Below are positions 8,967-57,035 of a stretch of DNA of 64,000 nt, piece by piece. The DNA is from a virus. The DNA lies in the UHGV virus genome UHGV-1358930, one strand, 5' to 3'. The number at the start of each line of letters is the position of its first letter. Position 1 is the stretch's first letter. Under the pieces are notes generated by a model. The model had not been told where the DNA came from, made no database searches, and worked only from the letters and a program-made list of their open reading frames with translations. A program made the translations under genes and the position numbers.

Positions 8967-8979
8967 GGAGGTATTCAAT

Positions 8980-9258: not shown

Positions 9259-9264
9259 CTACAT

Positions 9265-10738: not shown

Positions 10739-10960
10739 AACGAACAGCGTGGATTGATAACTTGAATCAGCTCAAATAGCTGAAAATGAGCAGTCTTGGT
10801 AGAATGCGGGAAGTTGGTAAGGGTATCAACAACACACTACAGCATGGTGGGTTTGCTGTAGACAAAATACAATCAGCTCGATAATAGAGCTGTTAACGAA
10901 GATTCGGTTATGCATGAGCATTTCCGAATCTTTTATTGTGTTTGCTTAGAGGTGATAAAA

Positions 10961-11173
10961 ATGAAAATATTAAGATGTCCTGTATGCAATTCAAAAATCG
11001 TTATTTTACACGATATAGATACTAGATTTGACGAAATCCGATATCGTATACTTTGTTCAGATTACAGCTGTGTAATCAACGATGTATGCGCTTCTAGTTC
11101 AACTAAATTAGGTGCATATAAATTATGGATAGCAATGAGGAGATGGGTCTTACGTGATCACAGAGGAAATTGA
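10961..11173 (+). CDS. hypothetical zinc-ribbon protein
   Basis: GAGGTGA RBS before ATG 10961; CPVCNS ... CSDYSC motifs. Confidence 0.4.
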   Translation: MKILRCPVCNSKIVILHDIDTRFDEIRYRILCSDYSCVINDVCASSSTKLGAYKLWIAMRRWVLRDHRGN

Positions 11174-12153: not shown

Positions 12154-12206
12154 ATATTAACAAATTATTAACGATAGTTGAATTCACCCTCAAGATCGCT
12201 TATAAT
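12152..12206 (+). promoter_or_regulatory. ATATTAACA/ATTATTAACGA operator-like repeats plus sigma-A consensus promoter (TTGAAT-17-TATAAT)
   Basis: -35 at 12178-12183, -10 at 12201-12206; same architecture as at 8535 and 57041. Confidence 0.6.
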
Positions 12207-12276
12207 ATAAGTATCGACATATAGTTACACATATCAGAAATCAGAAAATAACTGATACAAAAATTGGAGGTACAGT

Positions 12277-12564
12277 ATGGAGAAGAACATTGTAACTTCT
12301 ATAACAGATCAGATTCGAGTACTGCAGGAACATGAAGTCATTGCTTCAAAAGCAGGATTGCACTACGCAGTTATGTTTGTGCAGCTAGATGATAAATCAG
12401 AAGTATTCTGGCACGATATTTGGTCACAAGATAAGAATATACTCATGTGGATGCTAGACCAGCTTGAAGCAAGCTACAACGATATGGAAGATGTCAGATA
12501 TGAATCATATGTTGGTACACATATTCGTAACATCGGTTCGAGTGGATTAGATTTCAGTAATTGA
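12277..12564 (+). CDS. hypothetical protein
   Basis: GGAGG RBS; 95 aa. Confidence 0.5.
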   Translation: MEKNIVTSITDQIRVLQEHEVIASKAGLHYAVMFVQLDDKSEVFWHDIWSQDKNILMWMLDQLEASYNDMEDVRYESYVGTHIRNIGSSGLDFSN

Positions 12565-12646
12565 CGAAGAGTCTGCAATATGTCTTCGGAACAGATCAAT
12601 TCACAAATAGATTCAACTGATGTCAATATTTCTAAAGGGAACTAAT

Positions 12647-12952
12647 ATGAAACGTATCCAGTCTATCAATGAATTTCATAATGCAAAAGCAGATGTTATC
12701 AACAAAGCTAATATGATCAATGGATTCGCAGGTATGTGCTTCTTCACAGATCCAGTAACCGGCTACACTATTATGCTAGATGTAATCAGCTCAGACAGAA
12801 ATGTAGTAGAAGATTGGCTGGATAACTGTAGCAATACATATCGAAGAAATTGTGAAAGTTTTGTAACGTATCTAAATGAAGATCTTTATTATGATGGTGT
12901 AAAACGAGATTGGGCTTGGTCTTTACTTGGAAGCATATTCCAGTTCGCATAA
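12647..12952 (+). CDS. hypothetical protein
   Basis: AAAGGGAAC RBS before ATG 12647. Confidence 0.45.
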   Translation: MKRIQSINEFHNAKADVINKANMINGFAGMCFFTDPVTGYTIMLDVISSDRNVVEDWLDNCSNTYRRNCESFVTYLNEDLYYDGVKRDWAWSLLGSIFQFA

Positions 12953-12986
12953 ACATTGTAAGATACGTTACAATTGGAGATCAAAC

Positions 12987-13406
12987 ATGATTACTAAAAA
13001 AGATTTGTCATATTTTAGAATTGCTAAGCAAACAGCTAAATTGTCTACTTGGGAACAAGTTAGGTATCAAATTGGGTGTGTAGTAGTATTGAACCACAGA
13101 ATAATCAGCGTCGGATTCAACACAACAAAGACAGATACCCTTCAGAAGAAATACAACAAAGAGAGATTCACAGAAGAATCGTGTCATATGGCTCATGCGG
13201 AGCTGTTAGCTTTGAAGCCGTTGTTATACGATAACACGATTGACGCTTCTAAGCTTAAAGTATATGTATACAGAGAGTTGAAAACGGGTAAACTTGGCTG
13301 TGCTCGTCCTTGTAAAAGTTGTATGAAGCTGATAAAAGACATCGGCATTCGTTACATATATTATACAACTTCTGATGGATACGCAGAAGAAAAAATATTG
13401 TATTAA
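12987..13406 (+). CDS. dCMP/cytidine deaminase-family zinc enzyme (dCMP deaminase likely)
   Basis: CDA-fold zinc motifs HAE (CHMAHAELLAL) and PCxxC (RPCKSCMKLI). Confidence 0.7.
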   Translation: MITKKDLSYFRIAKQTAKLSTWEQVRYQIGCVVVLNHRIISVGFNTTKTDTLQKKYNKERFTEESCHMAHAELLALKPLLYDNTIDASKLKVYVYRELKTGKLGCARPCKSCMKLIKDIGIRYIYYTTSDGYAEEKILY

Positions 13407-13420
13407 GTAGGTGAATTACA

Positions 13421-13891
13421 ATGAAGTTGTTCTTAAATAGAGATATTTTCTGTCAAGCTTTTCCGATGTCTAAGGTAAAAGATAAACTACTTGCTGACTC
13501 AAAACAGCTCAACGAGCACATATTGAAATGCGTCATCTATTATGATGAGTTACATTGCTTATCGCATTGGATAGACGAAATTACAAGTTGGGTGTACAAA
13601 GCAAGCACAGTAAGCAGTAAGCACAACATATCGGGTAAAACGTATCAGAATACAATATTCAGCTGGTTTGGAGAAGATCAAAGAGACTGCGAATCTAATC
13701 TATACGACTTTTATGCAAAATTTGTTATGAAACGAAAATCTTACCCAGAGTTTGAAATTTCTGATTACTTGATTGAAAGATTGTATCATGTATATAGAGA
13801 ATTTGAACGTGATATCATCAACATGTATATTAGTAAATACAATTACAGTAAATCCGATTATCTAGAAGCTGTTACAGATATATTGAAGTGA
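13421..13891 (+). CDS. hypothetical protein
   Basis: AGGTGA RBS; 156 aa. Confidence 0.5.
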   Translation: MKLFLNRDIFCQAFPMSKVKDKLLADSKQLNEHILKCVIYYDELHCLSHWIDEITSWVYKASTVSSKHNISGKTYQNTIFSWFGEDQRDCESNLYDFYAKFVMKRKSYPEFEISDYLIERLYHVYREFERDIINMYISKYNYSKSDYLEAVTDILK

Positions 13892-13907
13892 GATAGGAGG
13901 TGACCGC

Positions 13908-14342
13908 ATGAAGAAGTGGATCAACTACAGCCAACCGATATTTGCAATGGCTATAATCAATCCGCAGCTAAATACGGAATTTGGAATATTTGTTGAAGTG
14001 TTTCAAAACAACGAAGGTAGTATTCCGCATGTGCATGTGTATCACGACAAATCTCGAAACAAGCGAAGATGCTCAATAGTTCGATTAGATAAACCAGAAT
14101 ACTCAACACATCACAAGTATAATCCTGCGATGCTTAAAGATGTGAAAGAAAAATTTCTTAAAATAATGACTCAACCCTGGCCCAGTCACATCATTCAGCT
14201 TTCCGATGGATCGTATCGACCTGCAACAGGATACGAAGCTGCAGTTAAAATTTGGGCAGATACATTTGAAAAAGGAAGTTTAGCGAAATTTAATCTAGAT
14301 AAGAATGGTGACATTATCAACATCGACTATTCTAACATTTAA
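13908..14342 (+). CDS. hypothetical protein
   Basis: GGAGGTGA RBS; 144 aa. Confidence 0.5.
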   Translation: MKKWINYSQPIFAMAIINPQLNTEFGIFVEVFQNNEGSIPHVHVYHDKSRNKRRCSIVRLDKPEYSTHHKYNPAMLKDVKEKFLKIMTQPWPSHIIQLSDGSYRPATGYEAAVKIWADTFEKGSLAKFNLDKNGDIINIDYSNI

Positions 14343-34350: not shown

Positions 34351-34406
34351 AGAGAGTTTTGTATTCCTTTGAAACCCTCTCTGAAAATAAAAATAATAAG
34401 GAGAAG
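34351..34406 (+). ncRNA. candidate preQ1-I-type riboswitch-like leader (hairpin + A-rich tail + SD) upstream of queF
   Basis: agagag..ctctct 6-bp stem, then gaaaataaaaataataaggag with the SD in the tail; architecture only, no model scan possible. Confidence 0.3.
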
Positions 34407-34413
34407 TAAAAAA

Positions 34414-35925
34414 ATGCTAAAATCAAACAATGGAAGAACATCCGAAGACTTATCAGGAGTAACTCTACTTGGTAATAACAACACTGAGTACAACTACGAC
34501 TATACTCCAGAAGTTCTAGAAACATTTGTAAACAAGCATCCTGACAACGATTATGTTGTCACATTTGATGCTTATGAATTTACAAGCAAGTGTGTCACCG
34601 GAGACACTATGATAGATGTTGCATGTAATGAAACTGACAATCCGGATGGAATTCCAATCAAAGATTTGGTAGGTACAGAAGGATATGTGTTTTGTGTAGA
34701 TCCCACTACATTACAACCATTATGTAGGAAGTATCGAGATGTACGAAAGACTGGAGAAAGTGTACCTGTAGTTAAAGTACTCATGCAAAGTTTGAGAACA
34801 GATGGAAAGGGTAACACATACTATGAATCTTCTGAAATCAAGTGTACACCTGATCATATGATATTGGTGAAAAAAGGATTCCATGATAGCGAATGGGTGT
34901 GTGCAAAAGATCTCAAACCTGGCATGAGGTTGATTGCAAATCAAAGAAGTGGAGATGTAATACGATCTAAACTTCGACACAGACTTATTGGGGAAGCAAT
35001 TTTTGATGAAGATATTATGAATATTCATCATATAGACGGTAATCATTACAATAATGACCCATCTAATCTATCTAATTTATCTTCTCATGATCATCACCAT
35101 CTTCATAGATCTCAAGAATATGGATACGATAATTTAGATGTATCATACTTAGTTGATCTGTATAACTCCGGAGAAAACTTCAACTCCATAGCAAAGATGT
35201 TCAACTGTGATGTATCTACCATTGAATCTAGAATAGGTAATATAGTTGGAAGACGGACACAATCAGAGTCATTATCACTACGAAATAACTTGTTGAATAA
35301 AGAGCGGGATAGCGAAATCTGTGAATTGTACAACAAAGGATACTTGCTATCTGAAATTGCAGATTACTTAAATATCCACAGTACAACAGTGTTAGGAGCA
35401 CTAGAAAGACACGGCATCCCTCGCAGAGAATCGAACTTCTCTAGGTACAATCGAAAGAAATTGAACCTCCCACCATTGAATCATAAAGTACTAGCTGTAC
35501 TAGATGGTGGATATGAAGATGTGTACAACATGGAAGTAGAAGGAGTTGAAAACTATTTTGCCAATGAAGTGATAGTCCATAACTGCCCAAAAACGGGGCA
35601 GCCAGATTTTGCAAAAGTTGTAATTAGTTACATTCCTAATGAGAGAATGGTTGAAAGCAAGTCCCTAAAGCTTTACCTCTTTTCTTTCCGCAATCATGGA
35701 GATTTCCACGAAGACTGCATGAACATCATCATGAAGGATCTAATTCATCTTATGGATCCGAAGTACATTGAAGTAAAAGGTATTTTTTCTCCAAGAGGAG
35801 GTATCTCCATCTTTCCCTTTGTTAACTACGCGAATCCGAAATTTAATTATCAGGATTTTGCAAAGTCTCGAATGCTGGAGGCGCTTAGAGATTCGAGCAA
35901 TAGAACAGTAAGATACGATATGTGA
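34414..35925 (+). CDS. queF: NADPH-dependent 7-cyano-7-deazaguanine reductase QueF (YkvM type), interrupted by an intein (extein 172 aa)
   Basis: N-extein ends ..AYEFTSK, C-extein starts [18 protein letters not shown]..; spliced junction [14 protein letters not shown] matches the QueF catalytic motif E(F/Y)TSLCPxTGQPD. Confidence 0.8.
34591..35583 (+). mobile_element. intein (331 aa) within queF carrying an HNH endonuclease domain and two HTH modules; inserted immediately before the QueF catalytic Cys, which serves as +1 residue
   Basis: Block [11 protein letters not shown] at the start; terminal VIVHN followed by extein Cys; HNH core [23 protein letters not shown]. Confidence 0.75.
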
Positions 35926-43834: not shown

Positions 43835-44601
43835 AAGGAGAAAGTTTCTCTAACATTCATTGACGTATGTAATCTATTGTAAAGCATTGTTTCTGCAGTT
43901 TTTAGTTTACTTTTTACTGTTTTGCTATCTAATCCATACATATCACATATTTTAAATATATCAGAATCTGTAAGTTTGTGCTCTCTATCTATCATCTCTC
44001 TCATCAGAAGTTCTTCAATAGTATCATAATTATCAGAAGATAGGGAGGTTAATTCAATCGACGGGATGTCCTCAGAAGTCAAGAAGGGTTCATGCTTATC
44101 AAGATCAGCTATGTATAAGGTTCCAAATATGGCTTTTAATGAATCCATCTTATCTACAGGTAAATGTAACCTTGGATCGGATAGATCTTCGTATTTAACT
44201 TGACCCCAATGTTTACCTAACTGTTCTCCGACTTCCATACATAAAGATCTACGAATGGAGTATTTAACTTCGTTCAACTCTCTTTCAATCATCTCTCCTA
44301 TACGAAGTAAATAAAATACTGAAAACGATAGATCTTGTCTATATCCTTTATGTGTTTCATCACCCTGCCATTTGTACCACCAAAAACATTCACAAAAATG
44401 AGTCAGAGCTGATTGAAGTTTATCTTCATATGTAACAGTAGAATTGTTGATAAATGTTCTACTTGCTACATATCCAAAAAACGCATAGTTAAGCTCTATT
44501 ATCTCATCGCGTTGTTTGAAACATTTCATTCGCTCTGCTTTATTTTGTGGCATAGTCGAATATATGTCTAAGGTTCGTTGTTTTATTTCCTCATTAGTCA
44601 T
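43828..44601 (-). CDS. sigma-70-family phage sigma factor-like protein
   Basis: Region-2-like IELNYAFFGYVASRTF and C-terminal HTH-like region; sole sizeable minus-strand gene, facing a large regulatory region. Confidence 0.55.
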   Translation of the reverse strand: MTNEEIKQRTLDIYSTMPQNKAERMKCFKQRDEIIELNYAFFGYVASRTFINNSTVTYEDKLQSALTHFCECFWWYKWQGDETHKGYRQDLSFSVFYLLRIGEMIERELNEVKYSIRRSLCMEVGEQLGKHWGQVKYEDLSDPRLHLPVDKMDSLKAIFGTLYIADLDKHEPFLTSEDIPSIELTSLSSDNYDTIEELLMREMIDREHKLTDSDIFKICDMYGLDSKTVKSKLKTAETMLYNRLHTSMNVRETFSLK

Positions 44602-45810
44602 TTTCTAGCACTCCCGTATCAATTGATGAAATTCTGAAATATTGAAATATTTAATAAACTGAGTAATGTGTAGAATATTGTGAAAACTGAAAATATGAAC
44701 CTTTGTTAATCTTACATGTAGAGGTATGTTTAAATCTACAAATATATTATATGAACTTAGTTAGCAGAAGTCAATGTAAATTAGCCAATTCATATCAAAA
44801 TTTTTATTGAAATCAGCAGATTTTCAGAATTTTGAAGTTTTACACAATTTGATCTAACTATAAAGCTAGATAGGAAATAACTATAACAAGCTGTTTGGCA
44901 TATAGATATGTTATAGCGAGACTTGAATAGCACTATAAGATAAATAACACGAACTTATCGCAATATCCGAAATTTAGAAATATTGAAGATTTGTGTATGG
45001 ATCATCTTAAACATTGAAATCTACAAAATCTACAATATCTGAAATTTTGAGATATTGTAAATTTGAATACTTTAACATACGTATATTGAATGTGCTTAAA
45101 AGATTAAATTTTCGTAAATTATTTTATTTATAGTTAAAATTTATGATTTGTTAATAGTTATAAACAGTATAAAAGTGATCTATTATTATAAGTGTCACCG
45201 TCTAGGTATATATGTATTCAATATATCATATAGTAGATATGTAAGTATTATATATCAAGCACATATCAAAATACTATAGCAAACTAAGTTATATAGGTAA
45301 TCCCTATATCAAGGTGTAATCTATATACAGTAATCCCTCACAGCGTAAGTTGAGCATAAACAATGAAATTGAGACATGTAGATATATTATCGCTATATAT
45401 CTAAACAAATTGATATAGTATTGACATATAGAGAATCACGTGATATTATAGCAAAACTTCATGGTTATGAAACTTCTATGTAACAAAATCAGTCAGAAAC
45501 CACCAAAATTTGAATATTTCAGAATATTGAAATTTCAATAATATGTAAATTTTACAATCTTTCAGAATCGTGAATATTTCAAAATATGAAAATTTCAACT
45601 TTCCGCTAAAATCACCAGAATTTAGTAAAATTGAAAGAATATGAAAATTTGATGCCTTCAATCTTTCAGAATCTGGTCATTTGGCCGCTTTAATATTATT
45701 AAAGAAATTAAAGTAATTAAAGTTATAATGTTATTAAAGTTATTTTAAAGGAATTAGCCAATTAAAGTAAAAAAGAATTAAAGTAAAAACTCGCAAGCTC
45801 GTTTTTACTT
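44602..45810. repeat. AT-rich repeat-rich intergenic region (iteron-like TTTCAGAAT / GAAATATTGAAAT units; ATTAAAGT x6 at 45690-45780; internal TTGACA-17-TATTAT promoter around 45420-45450)
   Basis: Multiple imperfect direct and inverted repeats, no credible ORFs. Confidence 0.6.
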
Positions 45811-46119
45811 TTTGGTTTGTAATCTGAGAACATAAATTCTGTCAGTAGATACCTCTATGCTGAAACGCATTGACGTACTTTTATGCGATCATGCGAAACA
45901 CATAGACGTGGGCGTGACCTAAACACTACAGTTGATACTGCACATGGTCGGTTCAAACTACGTAGTAGTTGAATTTTTGAGTAATTTGGTGGCGCTTGCG
46001 TTGAATATCTGTCTTCGTCTCGTGTATGCAACGCACGTATGAGTCTCATATGCAAAAAAAATATTCGCCAGCGCATTGGCAAATATCTGTTAGATTTCAA
46101 AAATTTATAAAATTCGGGG

Positions 46120-46148
46120 TTGACTTTTTGAAGCAGATACCTTATACT
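46120..46148 (+). promoter_or_regulatory. sigma-A consensus promoter (TTGACT-17-TATACT) driving an about 460-nt untranslated leader/ncRNA before the ORF at 46616
   Basis: Exact -35 hexamer, 17-nt spacer, near-consensus -10. Confidence 0.6.
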
Positions 46149-46615
46149 ATGGGTGTAGGTTCACCTAACAAGTTAAAACTCAGTTGAGCGTAGCACCTCG
46201 ACTACTTACTACTTCTGCTAGGCAGCTTCATGATAGAGTCAGCGCAAGATCGTCGAAGCAGGTAACTTGTTAGAAACCGAATCGTTAATGTACTTAGCAA
46301 ACCGCCACCAGGTAACTCCTATCGAGCTTGAAATTGAATAATCTCAAGATTGGTCAACAAAATCTTCTTTCAGAAGAGGCGCCAGTTTTGTACTCATCTT
46401 CTACTCACTTTTCGATAGGGGTGCTGGTAGTTGCTAAGCTATCAGTTTAGGTTTGCTAAAGTAGAAATAATCATCTACGTGAATTAGCCGGTATCTAGAG
46501 GTCGCTACTCGACGGTACGACGTTGTAGCATGCGTAGAAGCTGCAGCTGATGTGATGAGTGCAAAACTGACGCCTTTCTTTTGTTTATTTAGTAGTTCGG
46601 AGGGCTAAAGCATAC

Positions 46616-47983
46616 ATGGATATCTACACCGCAATGAATTCTATAAATAAGCTTGAAAATTTCATTATCAACGAATTTGATTTTGCAAAAGGAATGTATA
46701 GATCTACAATGACTAAGCTCAAAGAGATTGATAAGAAATGTAACGCAATTTCGACTAAATTGAATTCTTCTTTATCTGATGCAGGTGTAGAAGACAAAGT
46801 TAGTAAAGCTATCGAATTGACAAATCAGCTGAATATTTTGCTATCTGAGTTATCTGCGTCAGAAATTGAAAGTTCTAGAGAATTGAAAGAATCTTTCAAG
46901 TCTTGCGCAGCTATTTTTGTTATAGACGAAGATAAACCTCCAGCGACTGATAAGAGACTAGAAAATAAGCTAGATGCAATTTTAGATATATTGAAGAATT
47001 CTTCAATTTCTGATAAATTTACTAGTATTGAATCTAATCAATTTAATAAGCCTCTTGAAATTACAGAAAATGAGGATTCTAATGCGGTTGTGAGCAGATC
47101 CAGCGTTGCTGCAGATCAAATGAACGCATCTGAGACAGATTGCACTACTGTTGTTGATGTTAATCCTGTTTCATCATCTAACAATGAAGAACACACAAGT
47201 GCTTCTAATTCACTATCTTCAGATGTCAACCGGCGTCAGATATTCAAACGATTTGTCTCTACAATGGAGTATGCAAAGACTCATTCTACAAATTATCCAT
47301 TGGCTGACGTTGCAAAAGACTTGATTGTGGAGTGGTTTCAAGCTAGATTTTGTGATCCGACAACGCATTTCAAGTATAGACATCGAACTATTATAACTGG
47401 TATGTTGTCAATTACACTAGAAGTCGCTAGGAAGTATGCGTCATATTGTAAAGAGTCTTGGAGGCAGATATTAGATGTTTGGCCAAAGGTTAAGACGTCT
47501 GATATCTTAAGTGTCTCTTCTTTGATATCTGATATTCGTTCAAATAACATGCAATTTGCTTTGAGTTACGAGCTACAGTCTGCTATGTCAGATCCTGATG
47601 TTTTTGTTGAACGGTATGGTGAATATAAATTTACAGCAGTATGCGCTGAATATGTTTGGTACATACTTACTACTACAGTTTTTAAGAAAATCTGTGCAGA
47701 CGATGCATCTAACCATTTCGGAGTATCTGCAAGCTACTACATTACAAAACACAGTTTATGGGACTTGCTACTTAGCCATGAGGATAGCATCTATTTAGGT
47801 AATAAGGATATGTGTGATGTAGATGGTTACATATTTTCACCTGAAGGCATAGAATTCTGCGAAGACATGGAACTTAATCCGCATAAAATGGTTACTCATA
47901 TTGAAACGTATGACGCAGTCGATAAACATGATAAACATGTTGCAGCTAAGCAGGCGGAGAAGTTAGAGGAGGGCTTGATTTGA
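46616..47983 (+). CDS. hypothetical protein
   Basis: GGAGGG RBS; 455 aa; Ser-rich central region. Confidence 0.55.
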   Translation: MDIYTAMNSINKLENFIINEFDFAKGMYRSTMTKLKEIDKKCNAISTKLNSSLSDAGVEDKVSKAIELTNQLNILLSELSASEIESSRELKESFKSCAAIFVIDEDKPPATDKRLENKLDAILDILKNSSISDKFTSIESNQFNKPLEITENEDSNAVVSRSSVAADQMNASETDCTTVVDVNPVSSSNNEEHTSASNSLSSDVNRRQIFKRFVSTMEYAKTHSTNYPLADVAKDLIVEWFQARFCDPTTHFKYRHRTIITGMLSITLEVARKYASYCKESWRQILDVWPKVKTSDILSVSSLISDIRSNNMQFALSYELQSAMSDPDVFVERYGEYKFTAVCAEYVWYILTTTVFKKICADDASNHFGVSASYYITKHSLWDLLLSHEDSIYLGNKDMCDVDGYIFSPEGIEFCEDMELNPHKMVTHIETYDAVDKHDKHVAAKQAEKLEEGLI

Positions 47984-49302
47984 AACGTATATTTAGCGAA
48001 GCGGGGTTAGAGAACTACTCGCCTATTCAGTTAAAACGGTCTCCGATGCAAATGGTAATACGAGACGAAATAGCCCGTATTATTCAAAATTTTAGAAATA
48101 CTCAGAAATACAAAAAATCTGCGTTGCGTGCACTGAACATATTGATGTATGCCACATTCTCAAACTCGTATCCGCCTGGCTGGAGCTCTGATGATGGATC
48201 TGCTCCTGTAGTATCATATTTTTCTAAGTTATCTGAAGAAGATATTCGAGCAGAGATTGGAGATTACTATTTAGATTATGTGGATGTTAAGTGGATTGAT
48301 ATTCCAGAATCTAATAGTTCTGATAACGCAAGTATAGCGCCTACGAAGTCAAAAAAGCTTGCGCAGAATTCTATTGATAATAATTCTAAATCTGATAGTA
48401 GTACTCCAGATGACAAAATATTTGACAGCCTAGAAACTGTTGACCTAGATGAAGCACTTAGCGCATTAAATGATAAAAGCACTTCAGCGTCTAGCAGTCA
48501 ATCCAAAGAAGCTGGCAGCACTTTAGGTAGTAATCATCTTGATACGATCTATGATGAAGTTAGACCAAATTCTAAGCCGGAGGATCTTTGGTTGAATGGG
48601 CCCGCAGTACCACAAATTGATACGTCTAAAATCTGGAGACGAGGTATTGTAGACGATACTGAATTAGTGATATATCATAGTTTACCTGAAATTCCTACAC
48701 GTCAGTGTGAAATCTCCATCACTACAGATTCTAGTAAATTAGCTAAGACAGATCTAATGAAATTATATCCAGACTGTATGTTTTATACTAGGCCGATGAT
48801 ACTATATTCCGAATCTTGCGGATTGAAGATGCATAAAACCTTTGGTGGCATAATACCAATCAAAGGCTTCACACAAAAGCAGATCATTGATAATATCGTA
48901 AAATATCCAGTAGTTACTGGTATGACTAGAGAAGGCAAAAAGCACGGACGGTCTATATTTGTTGAATTTGAAAAATTCATAGAAATTGACGGTGAGTTAT
49001 ATAAGACAACAGACATGATTGATAAATTACCTGACCTGAAAACGCTGAAGCCTTCATGGTCAATTATCGCTGAATACGTCGTTCGTCGTTATTTACTTGA
49101 GAGAGACATCTTACATATAGACCATAAGTACAAGATGTATGGAACGCTAGATCCATACTTAACATTGTTCATGCCGTCTCAAGATTATGTATCTGCTGGG
49201 CACAAAGATGTTGTAGCTATTGCAAAACATTGCGTAGAGTCTAGAGTAAGCTATCTCCAGAGTAGAAGTCCCATCATTCGGAGGTTAGAAGAAAATGCAT
49301 GA
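47980..49302 (+). CDS. hypothetical protein
   Basis: 440 aa; start overlaps the previous stop. Confidence 0.55.
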   Translation: MKRIFSEAGLENYSPIQLKRSPMQMVIRDEIARIIQNFRNTQKYKKSALRALNILMYATFSNSYPPGWSSDDGSAPVVSYFSKLSEEDIRAEIGDYYLDYVDVKWIDIPESNSSDNASIAPTKSKKLAQNSIDNNSKSDSSTPDDKIFDSLETVDLDEALSALNDKSTSASSSQSKEAGSTLGSNHLDTIYDEVRPNSKPEDLWLNGPAVPQIDTSKIWRRGIVDDTELVIYHSLPEIPTRQCEISITTDSSKLAKTDLMKLYPDCMFYTRPMILYSESCGLKMHKTFGGIIPIKGFTQKQIIDNIVKYPVVTGMTREGKKHGRSIFVEFEKFIEIDGELYKTTDMIDKLPDLKTLKPSWSIIAEYVVRRYLLERDILHIDHKYKMYGTLDPYLTLFMPSQDYVSAGHKDVVAIAKHCVESRVSYLQSRSPIIRRLEENA

Positions 49303-49879
49303 TTGTATATATACACCATATTGTACATACAAACAATGCGACTTAGCTTGTCCTAATAGAGCTGAAGTGAATTGTTGGTTCAAACGATGCCGACTTGATA
49401 TGTCAAATAATTGCTTGCATACTAATATCCGAAATATTGAGAAAGCCGAGGATCTACTAAGTAACAAGTATGGAGAAACTGTGTGGTTTCCCACAGATAA
49501 TCCTTCAGATGCAAGCGACACTATTTGCTACGTAGCTATTTGCAAATATGGTAAAGGTACTGCTCTTGGAAACGGAATATACAATCTGGATTTTGCAAAA
49601 TTTATAGATATGATCAAGGAGTCCTGGAATACGCATTTTGAAACAGATAACTTAATTCAGATGCGTGTGTGGTCTTTGTCTGCAAATTACCTAGTTATCT
49701 CAAATCTAGATTATGTTAGATTTCAAGATTTTGAAAGTCAAACGTTGCTAAGGCTTCTGAATGATCGAAGAGATTATACAAAGACAACTGTAGTAGTTAC
49801 TAGTAAAGAACCTTTGGTCGGCAGCGGAAATTTCTTTCCTAGATTGACTTCTTTGCTAAAGGGGGTCAAGAGCAATTGA
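49295..49879 (+). CDS. hypothetical protein, Cys-rich N-terminus (possible helicase-associated factor)
   Basis: 194 aa immediately upstream of the helicase gene; function not inferable from sequence alone. Confidence 0.45.
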   Translation: MHDCIYTPYCTYKQCDLACPNRAEVNCWFKRCRLDMSNNCLHTNIRNIEKAEDLLSNKYGETVWFPTDNPSDASDTICYVAICKYGKGTALGNGIYNLDFAKFIDMIKESWNTHFETDNLIQMRVWSLSANYLVISNLDYVRFQDFESQTLLRLLNDRRDYTKTTVVVTSKEPLVGSGNFFPRLTSLLKGVKSN

Positions 49880-52299
49880 CGAATTCAGTAGAACTTCAAG
49901 TTATTTGTAAAATTTTAACAAGTCAAGATGATTCTGAAATTGATAGGCTGTGTGCGTTTGATGAATCCTATTACGCAGTATTCAAAGATCAGATCAAATT
50001 TATTCTAGATCATAGAGAAAAATATCATACTGTCCCAGACTTGTTTACGTTCCAAGCTCAATTCGAAGACATTGTTTTGATTGATGTAAACGAATCTGCA
50101 GATTTTTTAGTAGACGGACTTCGGAAAAACAAGCAGCAGATCATACTCTTACAAACATTCAATAAGCTATCTGAGTTAGGTTCTGCAGACGTTTCTGAAG
50201 CTTGGCAGTTCTTACAATCCCAATGCGACAAAGCTGCTCAACTTGATAATTCTAACCCGATGGATATCATCAAAGAAGCTCACAAGCGAAGTGATCAAGT
50301 TTTATCGCTAAGTAATCAAACAAGAATTCCTACAGGATTCAAAGAAGTAGATGAAACAATGTATGGAGGATTGTCAACTGTTGAAGAACTTTGTCTTGTA
50401 GTTGCTAGAACTAACACAGGTAAAGCTCAGCCTCTTTGGAGTAATATCTTAACACCTACTGGGTGGAAGCGTATGCGAGATATTCAAGTAGGAGACATTG
50501 TATGCGGTAGAGATAATGACAATGGTAAAGTAGTTCAAATATTTCCGCAAGGTACAATTGACTACTATCGTGTAAAGTTTGATGATGGTACTTATACGGA
50601 GTGTTCTGCAGATCATCTTTGGGAAGTTCTGGATAGTGAACGAAGGAAGCATGATAGAAAAACTTATGGTCAGTATCTTACATTGACTACTCGAGATATT
50701 CGGAATCATATGTATCGCAGATACTCTGTTGATATGTGTGAACAAATTGAATTCGAGAGTGCTTTTGATACAGATAGTGAACTTGACGGATATTTTTTAG
50801 GAGCATTTATCGGGCATGGTAGAAATGTAGGTAACAAGCTATATATTCATTCTCTGTCCGATGTTTCAAAGCGACGTATAATTGATGCATTGTCTAAATA
50901 TCGTTGTCAATTCACAGAAAATGATCCAAATACACTCGTGATTGAGGATAAGAATGATGGTAAGCTTATCCAAAAGATGTTCGAGTACAACTTGATGAAC
51001 TGCAAAGTCATTGATAGACATATTCCGGATATATATTTTCATAGCCCTGTAAATGTTAGAAAAGCTCTGTTATCAGGTCTCTGCGATACAGATAGCACAA
51101 TGTTATCAAAAAATCATAGAGGTTGGGTTTTCGTTACATCTTCAGATCAGCTTAAATCTGATTTTGTTTACATTGCTAGATCTTTAGGTGTAAAAGCAAA
51201 GGTGTCGACTGCAAGATCTGGTAGATGGGTTGACTTAGGTGTATCGCACGTTGCGAATACGTACCACAGGGTTATGTGTATCTCAAAATTCAATCCGTTT
51301 TATGGTTCACCAAATTACACAGAATTTGAACGCAGACAGGATAAAACTAAATTTAAAAATCGCAAGCGTGTTTGCAAATTCATTGATTCTATTGAATACG
51401 TAGGTAAGACGGAATGCCAGTGTATCATGGTAGACAATAAGACGCATACATATATTACAGATGATTTTATTGTCACACATAACACCTGGGTTACTACTAA
51501 GATGATGGAGTCTGCACAAGCGAATGGATTTCCTGTACTATATTATAGCCCAGAGATGCAATCTGCTTTCATTGGCACACGATTTGATACCTGGAGAGGT
51601 CACTTCCGAAATAGCGATATTCAACGAGGTAAATACAGCGAAGACTACATTCAGTACATCAAAGACATTGTTAAAGAGGAAACTGGTGCATTTGTTGCAG
51701 AAGACAAAGATATGCCAGGAGGAAAAACAACTGTCAGGTCGATTGAAACTCTAGTCAAGCGACATCATATAAAGCTTGTTATCATTGATGGTCTGTCTTA
51801 TATGGCAGATACAGAAAAGTCTGATAGCGATGTTATTAAGTATAAAAATATATGTACTGGACTATTCCGAATGTCTAAAACATATGGATGTGCTGTAGTA
51901 GTATCTGTACAAGCTAATAGAGACACTAAATCTAATGTCGATGACAAAGGAGTCCCGTGGCCTGATATGTATTCGATTGAAGGCTCAGACCATCCAGGAC
52001 GTATTGCAACTCAAGTATTTGCGCTTCGACAATTGTACGAAGAGCATACATTAGAGATAAAGCTGTTGAAGACTAGAAATGCAAAGAATGCAAATCCTAC
52101 GTTCGCATATGTATGGGATCCAAATACAGGAAACACAGAGTTTGTTTCGGATGATGCATCGGCTGCTCCTCCTTCTGCTCCTGCACAGCCTAGCAAGTTC
52201 TCAACGCCGACAGTGTCAGCAAAGATTGTACACACCGATATAGATGATAATCTAATCGATGCCAGTACAGATGACGATCTAGATGACGTTGAGTTTTGA
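49876..52299 (+). CDS. DnaB-like replicative helicase (T4 gp41-like), interrupted by an intein in the P-loop
   Basis: Exteins join as ..LVVARTNTGK|TWVTTKMMESAQANG (Walker A GxxxxGKT). C-terminal RecA-like motifs: Walker B LVIIDGLSYM, SVQANRD. Confidence 0.8.
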   Translation: MTNSVELQVICKILTSQDDSEIDRLCAFDESYYAVFKDQIKFILDHREKYHTVPDLFTFQAQFEDIVLIDVNESADFLVDGLRKNKQQIILLQTFNKLSELGSADVSEAWQFLQSQCDKAAQLDNSNPMDIIKEAHKRSDQVLSLSNQTRIPTGFKEVDETMYGGLSTVEELCLVVARTNTGKAQPLWSNILTPTGWKRMRDIQVGDIVCGRDNDNGKVVQIFPQGTIDYYRVKFDDGTYTECSADHLWEVLDSERRKHDRKTYGQYLTLTTRDIRNHMYRRYSVDMCEQIEFESAFDTDSELDGYFLGAFIGHGRNVGNKLYIHSLSDVSKRRIIDALSKYRCQFTENDPNTLVIEDKNDGKLIQKMFEYNLMNCKVIDRHIPDIYFHSPVNVRKALLSGLCDTDSTMLSKNHRGWVFVTSSDQLKSDFVYIARSLGVKAKVSTARSGRWVDLGVSHVANTYHRVMCISKFNPFYGSPNYTEFERRQDKTKFKNRKRVCKFIDSIEYVGKTECQCIMVDNKTHTYITDDFIVTHNTWVTTKMMESAQANGFPVLYYSPEMQSAFIGTRFDTWRGHFRNSDIQRGKYSEDYIQYIKDIVKEETGAFVAEDKDMPGGKTTVRSIETLVKRHHIKLVIIDGLSYMADTEKSDSDVIKYKNICTGLFRMSKTYGCAVVVSVQANRDTKSNVDDKGVPWPDMYSIEGSDHPGRIATQVFALRQLYEEHTLEIKLLKTRNAKNANPTFAYVWDPNTGNTEFVSDDASAAPPSAPAQPSKFSTPTVSAKIVHTDIDDNLIDASTDDDLDDVEF
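50425..51483 (+). mobile_element. intein (353 aa) with LAGLIDADG homing endonuclease; class-3-like (Ala1, WCT motif)
   Basis: Starts AQPLWSNILTPTGW; ends FIVTHN|T. Block B ..ADHLW, block F ECQCIMV, block G Thr-His-Asn. LAGLIDADG motifs LDGYFLGAFIGHG and LLSGLCDTDS. Confidence 0.65.
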
Positions 52300-52305
52300 T
52301 ATACT

Positions 52306-52337
52306 CCCGCCGAATCAATATTCGGCGGGTTTGCTTT
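52306..52337 (+). terminator. rho-independent terminator
   Basis: cccgccgaat..attcggcggg stem followed by TTTGCTTT. Confidence 0.75.
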
Positions 52338-52514
52338 GGTGCGATCGTTAGATAAACTAAGAAGGGAGTTAACATCACACCAGATTTGAAAATAAACATT
52401 AAATACCTTTATTTTCTTAATCTGTTCCTCTTTCAACGACCTTGCTTGACAAGTCAAGTCTTACTAGATCTCCAGAGGCGTTAATTTCCGCTTGTGCAGC
52501 GGTATTTGTTATTT

Positions 52515-53651
52515 TTAGGAGAAAGCTATTCTCAAGCCCTCGTTCAATATATTCTTTGATGCATTGATATCTCTATCATGTGTTGTTTGACAATTAGGAC
52601 AAGTCCAATTTCTAACTTCAAGATTTTTGACTTCTGGATTTTTGAATCCGCAACAGCTACAAGTTTGAGAAGACGGAAAGAAGGCGTCTATTTTGACAAG
52701 TTGTTTTCCATACCAGCTGCACTTGTAAGTCAATAGTTCAACGAATTTTGACCAGCTTGCGTCTGAAATTGCTCTTGCTAGTTTATGATTCTTGACCATA
52801 TTTTTGACTTTCAAGTCTTCAACACAGATTATGTCGTGGTTTTTGACAAATTCTGTTGACAGCTTGTGCAAGAAATCATTTCGTTGATTTGAAACTTTCT
52901 CAAATTGTTTAGCAAGTCTGATTCTTGATTTGTTTCTGTTATTAGATCCTTTTTGCTTCTTCGAGAGCTGTCTTTGAAGTCTTCTTAACTTCTTAGTAGA
53001 CTTTGAAAGGTATTTCGGATTTTTGATCTTTTCACCGTCTGAAGTTATTGCGAAATCTTTGATGCCGAGGTCAATTCCTACAACAGATCCAGTTTTGTCA
53101 AACTCTTCAATTTCAACATCTTTGCAACAGATACTTGCAAAATATTTTCCTGAAGCTGTTTTTGAGATGGTTGCCGAAAGCGGAGTTCCTTTGACATTTA
53201 AATTTCCTTTGAATTTAACCCATTTCAATTTAGGCAAGAAGATCTTGTTATCTAAACAATGAAATTGTGCAGGTGTGGAGTATGTAGCCTTATATGACTG
53301 TCTACTTGAAAGTTTCTTCTTAAATTTAGGATAACCTGGTTGCTTTCCATTCTTTACGTTTCTAAAGAAGTTTTGATACGCAGTATCAAGATCTCTAAGA
53401 GACGATTGCAAAGCCATTGCTTCAGGTTCTTTCAACCATGAATATTCGTCAAGCTTCTTGAGCTTTGTTAAATCTGCAGAATTTTGATTATATGTATTTG
53501 ACTTTCTTGCCTCTTCATAATCTTTGATGGATTTAGCAAGATAGTAGTTGTAGACAAATCTGCAGCAGCCAAAGGTTTTTGCAATTTGCTCAATCTGCTG
53601 CTTGTTCGGATATATCCGTATTTTATAAGCTTTCAGAATCATTTTGGTCAT
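52515..53651 (-). CDS. tnpB: TnpB (IS607/IS605-family OrfB, RuvC-like nuclease with C-terminal zinc finger)
   Basis: N-terminus [23 protein letters not shown]; zinc finger [24 protein letters not shown]. Confidence 0.85.
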
Positions 53652-54243
53652 CTGAAAGTGCCTCCTTGATTTTAGCTACGCTTCTCTTAGAATACATTTT
53701 CATTGAGTAACAGTGCAGTAAACTTACGATTTCTTCAAAAATTTCTTCAGAATCAAGTTTTTCGGATCCTAGTTGGGACGCAACAACTATCTCTGTTCCA
53801 AATTTTCTAAAAAGATGATAAAATAGATCAAATCCTACTCTAGACAGTCTGTCTTTATAATTGATAACTACTTTCTCAACTTTATATTCCAATACATCGT
53901 CTAATAGTTCAAAAAACTGTTTTCTGTTTTCAAAAGAAATTCCGGAAGCAACCTCTTGAAAAACACCATCGACTTGAATTCCGGAATTCATGCAAAAACT
54001 GTTCAAAGATTCAAGTTGGTTCGCTAGATCCGATTTTTGAGATATTGTAGAAACTCTAGCGTAGATATAATTTTTTCTTGTTTGACCGTTATTTAATATA
54101 GAGTAGACGTCTTTATCATGATAGATGCGCTTACCTGTAGGTGTTAAGTCATAATGAATGAGTCCTCTTTTGCAATAATGACCAAGTGTTGGCTGTGAAA
54201 TATTCAATAGTTGTAACACTTGTTTAGCTTTCATATTGATCAC
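53623..54243 (-). CDS. tnpA: IS607-type transposase TnpA (small serine recombinase with N-terminal MerR-like HTH)
   Basis: [26 protein letters not shown]; catalytic serine motif [14 protein letters not shown]; 29-nt overlap with tnpB. Confidence 0.85.
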
Positions 54244-54295
54244 CTCAAAATAATTTAAGGTTAAAAAATAATATCATCTTAATATAAAAAAGGAA

Positions 54296-55303
54296 ATGCT
54301 ATATATGAATATTGATACCATAATTGATAAACTTTCATCTCAAGGGTTTATACGCCTAAATAGGCATATAGGCGACTACTATAGCTGCTATTGCCCATTT
54401 CACAGTGATGGAAAAGAGAAAAAGCCGTCCTCTGGTATATTGCTAAGAGACCAGTATCGCAATGGACAGCACTATCCTGCTGGATTCTTTAACTGTTTCA
54501 CTTGTCACCATGCATATCAACTGGAAGAGTTCATCACAGAGCTATTGAAAGTTAATTCTATCCACATGTCTGGTAGAGATTGGCTCATCAAGAATGATCC
54601 AGATTATGATCCAGATACAGAATTTGAATATCTCTTACCTAGAGATATGATGCAGTCTGTCGTGAATTCTTTTGCATTAAAGCAGATATCTAGTAAGTCG
54701 GGAGTTCAAAAACCTTCATTCATATCTGAGTCAGAACTTTCTAAGTATAGATACACAGTACAGTATATGTATGACCGAAAACTTACAGACACTGTGATCG
54801 ACTTATTTGACGTAGGGTTTGATGCTAATTTCGTTCCAGCAGGAAGAAAGAAATCAGTTCCATGCGTCACATTCCCGGTAAGAGATGTCCACGGAAATAC
54901 GCTGTTCATCTGCAGACGATCGATTGAAGGAAAATCATTCTATCTACCGTCAAACATAGAAAAATCTGTATATGGGCTGTATGAATTACCTCAAGGATGT
55001 AAATCTGTTATCATCGCGGAAAGCTGCTTCAATGTTCTAACTTCTTACGTTTACGGTGTACCTGCTGTAGGTCTACTAGGTACTGGTACTCCTCATCAGA
55101 TTTCTCAGCTTAGAAGTTTAGGTGTAAATGAGTTTGTATTAGGATTAGATCCAGATGAAGCAGGAGATAGAGCTTGCAAGCGATTGAAACGAGCACTCGG
55201 CGATATTGCTATTATCCGACGCATGAATGGAATACCTGAAGGAAAAGATATAAATGACCTCACCAAGTCTGAATTTTTAGACATATACAGAAGTAGAATG
55301 TGA
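54296..55303 (+). CDS. DnaG-like DNA primase (zinc-binding + TOPRIM)
   Basis: Zinc finger CYCPFH..CFTCHH; TOPRIM VIIAESCFN ... LGLDPDEAG. Confidence 0.8.
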   Translation: MLYMNIDTIIDKLSSQGFIRLNRHIGDYYSCYCPFHSDGKEKKPSSGILLRDQYRNGQHYPAGFFNCFTCHHAYQLEEFITELLKVNSIHMSGRDWLIKNDPDYDPDTEFEYLLPRDMMQSVVNSFALKQISSKSGVQKPSFISESELSKYRYTVQYMYDRKLTDTVIDLFDVGFDANFVPAGRKKSVPCVTFPVRDVHGNTLFICRRSIEGKSFYLPSNIEKSVYGLYELPQGCKSVIIAESCFNVLTSYVYGVPAVGLLGTGTPHQISQLRSLGVNEFVLGLDPDEAGDRACKRLKRALGDIAIIRRMNGIPEGKDINDLTKSEFLDIYRSRM

Positions 55304-55344
55304 TAGATCGTTAAAATTAAATGTACTAAATACTTAGGAGTGAT

Positions 55345-55632
55345 ATGTTGATTACACTGAATATTAGAAATTGTAAGATTTTAGACACTGCGACTTTATC
55401 TAAATTGACAGCATATATTGATAAGTTGCAAAATAAACTTGAAGCTGCTGAGATGGTTGAATCGCAGCAGAATATGTTGATCGACGCGTTGATCGAAGAA
55501 AATCAAAGACTTCATACTTTAGTAGATACTGGGCGGGATACCAATGAAACTAAACAAACAGCAAGAAAAGCTAATAGATCTATCGTTTCTGTCCGATATA
55601 AAACAAGCTCAAGTTATGCAGACATGCGATAA
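55345..55632 (+). CDS. hypothetical coiled-coil protein
   Basis: TAGGAGTGA RBS; 95 aa. Confidence 0.4.
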   Translation: MLITLNIRNCKILDTATLSKLTAYIDKLQNKLEAAEMVESQQNMLIDALIEENQRLHTLVDTGRDTNETKQTARKANRSIVSVRYKTSSSYADMR

Positions 55633-55840
55633 GATTATCGAAGATTTGACAAGCAACCACTCTAGCATTAGACAATGTTCTGATAACATAGGAGTGCCTA
55701 AGTCTACAATTCATCTTTATATTCACACTTATATTAGAGAATATTATAACAGCGATTATAAGGAGATCCAGCATCTTTTGCAATTCAACAAGAGATACAG
55801 ATGCAAATGTAGAAGATGCTGGACAGAAAGGTACTGGTGA
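55544..55840 (+). CDS. hypothetical protein with HTH-like segment (overlaps the previous ORF in another frame; true start uncertain)
   Basis: SIRQCSDNIGVPKSTIHLYI resembles an HTH; Cys-rich C-terminus. Confidence 0.3.
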   Translation: MKLNKQQEKLIDLSFLSDIKQAQVMQTCDKIIEDLTSNHSSIRQCSDNIGVPKSTIHLYIHTYIREYYNSDYKEIQHLLQFNKRYRCKCRRCWTERYW

Positions 55841-55844
55841 TATT

Positions 55845-57035
55845 TTGAATTATGCTTGGATGTTGAGGCAAGACGGTACGGCATTCAGCTGCACACATCA
55901 TTTATATTGCATGGATGACGACGATTTATCTTCTGAAGCAGAGTGTGCTGCATTTATTTTAAATAGCAACTCTAAAGATTCTAAATTAGCCGAATTGATT
56001 CTAGACGCTTGGATGGCATTAGGGATTGAAAACTCTGTCAACTACGATGCGGATGAAGAAGACATTGAAAATGCAATCATCAAATTTGCAAACTCCGTTC
56101 CATATCATTTTCAATTTGAGTTAAAGTTAAGCAAGCTGTTACAGATTCACAAATCTGCACATAATTATAGCGATGTGGACAGCTTGTATGAGTTCTGTGA
56201 CTATGTTAGATCTGAGTTATCTACGCTTCAAAGACAGATAAAACATTCTATCAATCAGCAGTTTTGTAGAGTTAGATTTGGAGGGCAGTATGACTCAATC
56301 AATCCTACTAGCACACTTTGGTTTAGAATCTCTAGTGTAGGATTCAATTGGGCTGATACTATATACATTTTCGCTTCAGAATGCAAGAAGTCTTATCATG
56401 TAGCATACATTACCATATGTAGAGATCATGAATCTGACAATGGTATAGATTCAGACGCAGATGAATATTTCTACAAGGCTCGAGATGGAGCTATCTATTA
56501 CAACATGCCGATTGAAGAGTTCCTTGCTGAAGAACATGAACATTCTTTAGTATTTTCTAACAAGCAGATAAATGTCATGAAGGGCTACGTGAAGACCATT
56601 AGAGATTGCTTCAAGTTTGGTAAAACCGAGCAAGAAACTGCAGATATTTTATTGTCGCACGATATTAACTATGATCCGATGATGTGGGATAGATTGAAGA
56701 ATAGAGACAGAGCGCGTTTCTGTATTGCAGCGTCACAATACTTTGATGAGGCAAACAACAGGACAAAGAACCGATTGAACAAGATTATGAATATGATCAT
56801 CAATCGCTACCCTGAAATCAAATCTGTGGATATTGACTACAAATACAGAGACAAGGTGAGAGGTAAAACACCTGGATGCGAATATCTATTCTATTTGACA
56901 TCTAACTTTGATGAAATTGATAGACTAGAAATATCAACTGTATTCAATCGTCTAGAAACAAACCCGGATATTATCTTTAGAAGATTCAAACAGGAATATG
57001 AATCGTATAAAGAATACTCAAACTTGAATATCTAA
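55845..57035 (+). CDS. hypothetical protein
   Basis: 396 aa, TTG start as listed. Confidence 0.5.
   Translation: MNYAWMLRQDGTAFSCTHHLYCMDDDDLSSEAECAAFILNSNSKDSKLAELILDAWMALGIENSVNYDADEEDIENAIIKFANSVPYHFQFELKLSKLLQIHKSAHNYSDVDSLYEFCDYVRSELSTLQRQIKHSINQQFCRVRFGGQYDSINPTSTLWFRISSVGFNWADTIYIFASECKKSYHVAYITICRDHESDNGIDSDADEYFYKARDGAIYYNMPIEEFLAEEHEHSLVFSNKQINVMKGYVKTIRDCFKFGKTEQETADILLSHDINYDPMMWDRLKNRDRARFCIAASQYFDEANNRTKNRLNKIMNMIINRYPEIKSVDIDYKYRDKVRGKTPGCEYLFYLTSNFDEIDRLEISTVFNRLETNPDIIFRRFKQEYESYKEYSNLNI

Follow-up and report, generated by a model that had tools for sequence, protein, structure and literature searches.

Insertion sequences of the IS607 family, such as IS607 of H. pylori, IS1535, ISXfa1 and CboIStron, encode a serine transposase (TnpA) with an N-terminal helix-turn-helix (HTH) domain and an overlapping tnpB gene downstream. 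They have no terminal inverted repeats and make no target duplication, an identical dinucleotide is found at both junctions, short repeated motifs lie in the ends, and an omega-RNA from the right end takes the flanking sequence as its guide. Members of the family transpose by way of a double-stranded circle, for which TnpA alone suffices. The crossover is at GG in IS607 (PMC6188088), in ISXfa1, which has a GGG target-adjacent motif (TAM) (PMC10711439), and in CboIStron, which has a TGGG TAM (10.1101/2023.11.20.567912), and a 2026 review states that 'most' IS607 members end in GG, with AGGAG or GAGGG as TAMs (PMC13565253). AT-rich pentanucleotide TAMs are found in IS605 elements, for example TTGAT in ISDra2 and TTCAT for the IscB of ISGst5 (10.1101/2023.03.14.532601). 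Here we describe an IS607-type element in a 64,000-nucleotide stretch (the window) of the virus genome UHGV-1358930.

We consider it highly probable (roughly 0.85) that positions 52374–54304 on the minus strand are an intact, recently mobile IS607-type insertion sequence, encoding TnpB and a predicted omega-RNA, that inserted between the Shine-Dalgarno sequence and the ATG of the primase gene. Direct support comes from the anatomy of the element, its exact ends, the empty sites, mobility among phages, intact catalytic motifs, purifying selection and a conserved RNA structure. The gene order and overlap, the HTH-containing serine TnpA, the absence of terminal repeats and target duplication, the identical junction dinucleotides, the repeated end motifs and the (here predicted) right-end omega-RNA are all as in the family described above. 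In contrast to the characterised elements, with GG and G-rich TAMs (TGGG, GGG, AGGAG), the junction here is AT and the putative TAM is TTCAT; the TnpB falls below the cut-off of the NCBIfam IS607_TnpB model, no group I intron is present, and the element resides in a large uncultivated gut phage. Elements of this kind, and the way in which they work, are well known; what is atypical here is the AT junction and the TTCAT motif, and current understanding is not overturned.

Ends of the element and its empty sites

A six-frame list of open reading frames (ORFs) places tnpA and tnpB on the minus strand between a DnaB-type helicase gene (49876–52299, plus strand) and a Toprim primase gene (plus strand). 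The first-pass annotation had already recognised the serine TnpA and the overlapping zinc-finger TnpB in this gap, had given the element as 52440–54280, and had proposed that its ends be defined by comparison with insertion-free relatives. Such a relative is the IMG/VR contig IMGVR_UViG_3300029032_000001 (L081, 124 kb), which is 96–98% identical to the window on both flanks of the element. Window positions 44387–52372 align with positions 3–7999 of this contig and 54303–60442 with 7999–14138, so that ∼1.93 kb is missing from L081 at exactly this point. The empty site reads AAGAAGGGAGTTAAT joined directly to ATGAATATT, that is, the primase Shine-Dalgarno sequence, a six-base spacer and the ATG.

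A second occupied/empty pair has the same geometry: the occupied locus L118 reads ...TTTTCCAT/IS/TCACTCC... and the empty locus L121 reads ...TTTTTCAT/TCACTCC.... On the tnpB-sense strand, used here for all boundary sequences, 13 distinct right-end flanks all start immediately after ...CAAATCTG(R)(Y)GTGAT, and 16 distinct left-end flanks all end in N-Y-CAT (12 TTCAT, two TCCAT, one CTCAT and one ATCAT), after which the left end begins (A/G)(T/G)A...YYTCC. AT closes all 16 left-end flanks and all 13 right ends and is also present in both empty sites; as the copies uniformly have the form N-Y-CAT/left end...right end-GTGAT/flank, the shared junction dinucleotide is AT. Together with the second pair, these boundaries place the window element at 52374–54304, rather than the shorter interval annotated first, with AT at both junctions (TTC-AT and GTG-AT). 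Its layout is TTC-AT/ATATAGCATTTCC...CAAATCTGGTGTG-AT/GTTAAC, in the order left end, tnpA, tnpB, omega-RNA/right end, antisense to the replication genes:

52374–54304, minus strand: whole IS607-type element, 1,931 bp with one copy of the shared AT counted, from the L081 empty site, the shared boundaries and the second occupied/empty pair
54235–54304, minus strand: non-coding left end, having no inverted repeat with the right end, two TTATTTT motifs and a conserved ATTTCC motif
54305–55303, plus strand: primase gene (Toprim), its start codon abutting the left end, from family matches and the empty-site comparison
52364–52368, plus strand: original primase Shine-Dalgarno sequence (GGGAG), now 1.9 kb from the start codon; the L081 empty site reads AAGAAGGGAGTTAATATGAAT

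For the primase, 54305 is the most likely start (MNIDT, as in L081); the start at 54296 given by the ORF finder falls within the element. A repeat search of 52340–54340 found no inverted repeat joining the two termini, the two occupied/empty comparisons showed no target-site duplication, with the flanks rejoining without lost bases save for the 2-nt AT ambiguity, and GG is absent from both junctions. TTATTTT, which occurs twice in the left end, also occurs as an inverted pair that forms the right-end hairpin; the TTATTTT and ATTTCC motifs of the left end are candidate TnpA-binding sites.

Two other placements of the ends were considered. Pure parsimony would set the boundaries at 52372/3 and 54302/3, and would require no SNP there, but this is ruled out by the 13 right-end flanks, which diverge straight after GTGAT; with 52374–54304 the first base of the flank is a single mismatch, G in the window and A in L081. 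Placing the crossover at the two bases that follow CAT/GAT would make this G/A difference a product of heteroduplex resolution. It was rejected, as it needs a fully mismatched GT/TC crossover in L118/L121 and the positions agree in only three of 12 elements.

These comparisons bear on whether the two genes could instead be a domesticated pair, resident at this position, vertically inherited and without functional IS ends. The first-pass annotation had named the presence of the genes in all relatives, with no recognisable ends, as the finding that would speak for this. Empty sites do exist: a phage 96–98% identical to the window lacks precisely the 1,931 bp, more distant relatives (71% primase identity) are also free of the element, and the same element is present at 16 or more other sites with identical boundaries. 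We therefore regard domestication as having almost no likelihood, and the locus as an insertion.

TnpA, TnpB and the predicted omega-RNA

The two proteins of the element are encoded as follows:

53623–54234, minus strand: tnpA, serine recombinase transposase, 203 aa from the ATG, from NCBIfam, Pfam and PDB matches
52515–53651, minus strand: tnpB, predicted RNA-guided nuclease, 378 aa, from Pfam and NCBIfam matches and alignment with ISDra2 TnpB

The listed tnpA ORF (53623–54243, 206 aa) begins with a GTG at 54243, but the most likely start is the ATG at 54234, which is preceded by a GAGGTG Shine-Dalgarno sequence and gives the 203-aa length called in other loci. TnpA matched the NCBIfam equivalog transpos_IS607 over residues 7–190 (173.6 bits; cut-off 110), Pfam Resolvase (73 bits) and the IS607-family TnpA catalytic domains in PDB entries 6dgc and 6dgb. 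With numbering from the ATG, the nucleophile is Ser62 in YARVS. An N-terminal HTH is present, although the match to the MerR HTH is weak (19.9 bits against a cut-off of 28.2); the MerR label given to this recombinase at first is thus sub-threshold, while its identification as an IS607-type serine recombinase stands. It is the only ORF in the element other than tnpB, and no Y1 (HUH) TnpA is present.

The tnpB gene overlaps the tnpA ORF by 29 nt. Its product matched Pfam HTH_OrfB_IS605, OrfB_IS605 and Cas12f1-like_TNB and NCBIfam guided_TnpB, and it aligned over its full length with ISDra2 TnpB (PDB 8exa, 8h1j and 8bf8; phmmer E ∼1e-111) at ∼50% identity. The RuvC residues D194 (in GIDLG), E278 (in CVEDL) and D361 (in HDRDIN) align with the ISDra2 catalytic motifs and give the D-E-D triad of that enzyme; the zinc finger retains its two CxxC pairs (C331/C334 and C351/C354, in CSCCG...CPNC). 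Scores of 514 bits for NCBIfam IS200_TnpB (cut-off 425) and 208 bits for IS607_TnpB (cut-off 350) assign the protein to the ISDra2-like 'typical' clade. The partner is different, being a serine recombinase here and a Y1 HUH enzyme in ISDra2. Typical TnpBs that have independently and repeatedly been paired with serine-recombinase TnpAs are described as the 'Ser-1' branch by Altae-Tran et al. (2023, PMC10691335); the element fits that description. Since the Ser-1 pairing is documented there, the combination of a typical TnpB with a serine recombinase is not a new architecture.

Neither ORF of the window copy is disrupted, and no catalytic residue is missing. Between copies at different sites the ratio of non-synonymous to synonymous substitution rates (dN/dS) was 0.05–0.11 for tnpB and 0.07–0.11 for tnpA, with dS values of up to 1.5–2.6, so both genes have been under purifying selection while the element moves.

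The 141 nt that follow the tnpB stop codon, up to the boundary, have a mean column identity of ∼90% in 13 copies whose proteins are 77–97% identical. A covariance model (R1) built from these 13 copies gave one match in the window, and it matched the 3′ end of tnpB in 59 other loci (60 in all; G+C 0.27–0.61). We take this to be the RNA-coding part of the element, a predicted omega-RNA scaffold of the expected place and form:

52374–52574, minus strand: predicted omega-RNA scaffold, the last ∼60 nt of tnpB plus the 141-nt right end, from conservation and covariation
52354–52373, minus strand: predicted guide segment, GUUAACUCCCUUCUUAGUUU, from its position directly 3′ of the conserved boundary

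The predicted scaffold comprises a stem-loop (CCGCU/AGCGG), a nested helix (GCCUCUGGAGAUC...GGUC...AGAGG), a long AT-rich terminal hairpin whose loop is AUUUA, and a tail, GGUGUGAU. In the R1 alignment 85.6% of cells are base-paired, compared to 38–41% when the partners are slid by 1–3 columns, and 42 of the 52 pairs show compensatory (double) changes. Pairing reaches 100% of cells in the CCGCU/AGCGG stem-loop and at the foot of the nested helix, where CG-GC, UA-CG and AU-GC swaps are seen. An unfitted analysis of 14 diverse sequences with MAFFT and RNAalifold again gave these two central helices, in which 12 of 14 pairs carry compensatory changes. No Rfam family matched at E ≤ 1 over 51500–55000.

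Side-by-side inspection showed an (A)UUUA loop to be conserved in the last hairpin, the stem of which is wholly different among families: UCUCGUGGC/GCCAUGAGAG, UCCCCCGGA/UCCGUGGGGA and, in the family of the window element, GAAAAUAAAGG/UGUUUAUUUUC. The tail after the hairpin is GGUUCAA in IS605-type relatives and GGUGUGAU in this family. The order of helices and the terminal UUUA-loop hairpin are as in ISDra2; the hairpin is longer and AT-rich here, and the tail before the guide is not of the GGUUCAA type. The homology of the terminal hairpin, with the tail, argues that the scaffold extends to the transposon boundary (GTGAT/), as in characterised TnpB systems. A scaffold ending at GAGGAACAG, with an internal and fixed guide, was rejected because the AT-rich hairpin that follows is the homologue of the IS605-type terminal hairpin. 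The scaffold and guide had been placed at first in the 3′ flank at about 52340–52515; a predicted structured RNA with covariation that reaches the boundary and a predicted guide at 52354–52373 agree with this, whereas the scaffold would begin inside tnpB (∼52574) and not at 52515.

A further pairing was suggested by RNAalifold and R1, between AUCAAYG (52561–52567, minus strand, within the codons of the RuvC-III DINA motif) and the tail (C/U)GUGAU (52374–52380). It is present in 79.7% of cells across 51 sequences, with some double changes, and is weakly supported because one partner lies in protein-constrained codons.

The predicted guide, which begins GUUAACUCCCUUCUUA..., is phage flank and includes the displaced primase Shine-Dalgarno sequence. 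It is unique in the window, and the vacant site in L081 is TTCAT followed by the guide sequence with A for G at guide position 1. Across the copies, the guide differs with the insertion site and is always the local flank. This is relevant to a reading in which TnpB and its RNA have been exapted to serve the phage rather than the transposon, as a weapon against competitors or as a regulator like TldR. Phage-encoded regulatory TnpB derivatives of the latter kind are known (TldR; bioRxiv 10.1101/2025.07.22.666180), but TldR proteins are nuclease-dead and the RuvC triad is intact here. No conserved, site-independent guide was seen among the copies, the window holds no other match to the guide, and the element is mobile. 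Exaptation is accordingly very unlikely in our view.

Copies in related phages, transposition and possible homing

TnpB relatives with 70–97% identity were collected by protein search, mostly from human-gut metagenome contigs of 60–170 kb, and IMG/VR loci were added. The same element family was present at a minimum of 16 different sites in related gut-phage contigs of 70–170 kb, always with the boundaries ...CAT/ and ...GTGAT/. Copies with 94–97% identity, also in the closest relative, occupy other sites; such copies at different sites in near-identical phages point to recent movement. An exact 19-mer of the right end had two matches, in metagenome-assembled genomes, among genome contigs, compared to ∼4 expected by chance, and the left-end pattern was found in only three loci in metagenome contigs. 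By tblastn, IS607-type TnpA is encoded in 73 GenBank phage records, including T4-like Campylobacter phages, Lactobacillus phage 521B and Lak megaphages, and the element family is common in the clade of the window phage. The remark in the first-pass annotation that IS607 is uncommon in virulent phage genomes was therefore overstated.

Several copies are altered. In L001 and L120 a deletion within tnpA has brought ∼28 nt of left-end sequence up against the tnpB leader, leaving a non-autonomous element with TnpB intact. The copies at L128–L135 (for example L129, 1150–2631), of a type present on 11 contigs and located next to a GTP cyclohydrolase I gene, are likewise non-autonomous: they are 5′-truncated within tnpA and lack the left end, again with an intact TnpB. 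The tnpA ATG is changed to ATT in L118, L121 and L122 (∼2915; GAGGTGATAAATATTAAAGC), leaving a GTG inside the Shine-Dalgarno sequence or a non-canonical start, which may lower expression of the transposase. L122 (4640–4800, compared with L094 5720–5890) has tnpA and tnpB 96% identical to those of the window and the right end and downstream flank of a second IS607 family, the L094 type, whose TnpA is 65% identical; it is apparently a chimera of two IS607 families that coexist in these phages. Another, different IS607-type pair (a 198-aa resolvase and a 413-aa OrfB) lies at 1–1644 of L148, ∼1.3 kb from a member of the window element's family.

Transposition-defective relatives of these kinds (the tnpA deletions, the 5′ truncations and the ATG-to-ATT changes) raise the question of whether the window copy is itself a dead relic, a genuine insertion that no longer moves or cuts and whose genes have simply not yet degraded. 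In the window, however, the ends are complete and the ORFs intact with all catalytic residues, the dN/dS values of 0.05–0.11 across copies show selection on both proteins, and the 94–97% identical copies at different sites in near-identical phages speak of recent movement. A relic is hence improbable, though less so than domestication or exaptation.

In the scheme that we favour, that of an active insertion sequence, TnpA would excise the element as a double-stranded circle and reseal the donor, with a predicted circle junction ...AAATCTGGTGTG-AT-ATATAGCATTTCC... and a predicted donor joint TTCAT-GTTAACTCCC. It would integrate by a 2-bp crossover at AT, between the target TTC-AT and the right end GTG-AT, without duplication. 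The tnpB transcript would be processed to an omega-RNA with the conserved right end as scaffold and ∼16–20 nt of flanking phage sequence as guide. TnpB with this RNA would then cut TTCAT followed by a guide match, which is the vacant site left after excision or that of an insertion-free co-infecting phage, and recombinational repair from the occupied copy would restore or spread the element (homing). RNA expression, cleavage, the TAM, the AT crossover and homing are the parts of this scheme that we infer. Excision and integration by a serine TnpA and homing by TnpB have been shown experimentally for the IS607-family CboIStron (bioRxiv 10.1101/2023.11.20.567912), and TnpB homing has likewise been shown for IS605 elements (bioRxiv 10.1101/2023.03.14.532601). 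The many genome copies and frequent co-infection of a phage should favour such a mechanism.

It is possible, though on balance doubtful, that the element spreads mainly by RNA-guided homing between co-infecting phages, like a free-standing homing endonuclease, and that transposition by TnpA is rare or dispensable. TnpB is intact and under purifying selection in copies without tnpA (dN/dS 0.049 in L001) or without the left end (L128–L135, in 11 contigs). In addition, the 500 nt next to the element on the guide side (51870–52373) are ∼5% diverged from the empty-site relative, compared to a background of 1–2% and to ∼2% beside the primase, a pattern expected of a co-conversion tract, and further homing elements abound in the genome, among them the inteins of DnaB and QueF. 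On the other hand, the divergence peak is perhaps merely a variable helicase C-terminus, tnpA is itself under purifying selection, and new insertion sites are beyond homing, so the 16 or more sites require the transposase. Predominant homing thus complements the reading as a mobile insertion sequence and does not compete with it.

A NUMOD4/HNH_3 homing-endonuclease gene lies directly upstream of the primase gene in a related phage (L124, 5044–6908), on the same primase side as the insertion in the window, and the helicase–primase junction appears to be a hotspot for selfish elements. The retention of TnpB in tnpA-less copies, the guide-side divergence and this HNH gene are hints that fit with homing. 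The element resembles the T4 Seg/Mob-type homing endonucleases and the inteins of large lytic phages in being a selfish nuclease unit that lies amid conserved replication genes and that close relatives may have or lack; unlike the Seg/Mob type, it would recognise its target through an RNA guide and TAM rather than a protein, and it has its own transposase and can reach new sites.

The AT junction, start codons and surroundings

The flanking motif and two further features outside the genes are as follows:

54305–54309, minus strand: flanking target motif and inferred TAM, TTCAT (on the plus strand ATGAA, the primase start codon plus two bases), from 16 left-end flanks and both empty sites
54291–54295, plus strand: outward-facing AGGAA, a candidate substitute ribosome-binding site ∼9 nt from the primase ATG
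52306–52329, plus strand: terminator-like hairpin 3′ of the helicase gene, 44 nt beyond the right end

Both empty sites read TTCAT followed by the right-end flank, and TnpB would read this motif as its TAM. An AT-rich, IS605-type TTCAT agrees with the ISDra2-like nature of the protein, ISDra2 itself having the 5-nt TAM TTGAT. The only nearby difference between the window (52373) and L081 (7999) is at guide position 1 (G versus A), and that between L118 (2843) and L121 is in the TAM (TCCAT occupied, TTCAT empty). These differences in the predicted recognition region may be chance at 2–7% divergence, or a trace of escape or co-conversion.

Several points weigh against the reading as an active RNA-guided IS607-type element. 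The junction is AT, compared to GG in IS607, ISXfa1 and CboIStron (PMC6188088, PMC10711439, 10.1101/2023.11.20.567912), and AT is palindromic, so that alone it would not set the orientation for a serine recombinase. The R1 covariation counts come from an alignment fitted to the model, and the unfitted MAFFT/RNAalifold check spans the central helices only; conservation of the right end could in part be that of TnpA-binding DNA rather than of an RNA. Finally, the sole empty allele of the window site mismatches guide position 1 (A and not G) and may be a poor target.

TTCAT is the reverse complement of ATGAA, and seven of the 16 insertions have a junction CAT that serves as start codon for an ORF facing outwards (72–541 aa): the primase in the window, a 396-aa protein, a clamp-loader subunit, a CHAP/lysozyme protein, a DUF6948 protein and two others. 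Each of these seven insertions parts the gene from its Shine-Dalgarno sequence. In 14 of the 16 copies the outward strand of the left end bears GGAAAT, GGAGGT or GGAGAT, always equally far from the boundary, and we suggest as a hypothesis that this GGA(A/G)(A/G) acts as a replacement ribosome-binding site. Alternatively, the motif may be a subsite for TnpA, with GCATTTCC in the left end and, as reverse complement, AGATTTGA in the inner right end. Enrichment of insertions at start codons beyond survivorship is unsupported. The window has 285 TTCAT sites, 17 of them start codons and 21 otherwise intergenic, making 38 at which an insertion would leave coding sequence undisrupted, and the observed seven of 16 fits the 17/38 share. 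That prediction is valid only if insertions at start codons are harmless, which is an argument for the left end supplying a ribosome-binding site.

A more speculative extension, to us rather unlikely, is that an IS607-type lineage took over an IS605-type TnpB/omega-RNA module with an AT-rich TAM and that its crossover was retuned from GG to AT. The element would then often dock precisely at start codons, the left end would replace the displaced Shine-Dalgarno sequence (∼10 nt from the junction), and TnpB would act as an RNA-guided gene drive among co-infecting phages. If true, phages could survive insertions in front of essential genes (primase, clamp loader, lysin). Apart from this extension, the locus is a clean natural case of an IS607-type TnpB element in large uncultivated gut phages, with exact ends, two empty sites and many insertion sites, and it offers a compact TnpB of the ISDra2-like type, for which a TTCAT TAM and an omega-RNA of defined extent are predicted. 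A serine transposase that apparently crosses over at AT and not GG bears on how the specificities of TnpA and TnpB co-evolve, and the element is a possible case of RNA-guided homing between phage genomes.

The hairpin at 52306–52329 is phage sequence outside the element and is also present in L081. A megablast search of 49800–56000 against GenBank phages gave no match, and a distant-mode search of the same region gave only short tnpB fragments; the best matches to the primase, with 35–38% identity, are from Clostridium, Bacillus and Streptococcus phages. The window phage carries a tRNA array, inteins and a full replication module, and no integrase was found among the few window proteins that the scan covered.

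The array comprises nine tRNAs at 1869–8071 on the plus strand (two Gln, Thr, Ser, three Gly, Tyr(ata) and Met). Inside this tRNA gene cluster lies a second, divergent TnpB-like ORF of 418 aa (5772–7028, plus strand), with matches to Pfam OrfB_IS605 (84 bits) and Cas12f1-like_TNB (34 bits) and to phrog_506 'transposase'. It has neither a cysteine zinc finger nor an adjoining tnpA, and tblastn with the product of tnpB (52515–53651) misses it.

The DnaB-type helicase (49876–52299) is 807 aa long owing to an intein with a homing-endonuclease domain (Pfam Hom_end, residues ∼383–448); that of more distant relatives (L082) is 457 aa and lacks this intein. The intein region (∼50620–51370) is ∼10% diverged from the 96–98% identical relative, the highest of any stretch. 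A QueF-like gene of the 7-deazaguanine pathway (34369–35925, plus strand) is also split by an intein (Pfam Intein_splicing, with HNH and HTH matches). QueD, QueE and GTP cyclohydrolase I genes are found in relatives, which suggests a modified guanine base in the phage DNA.

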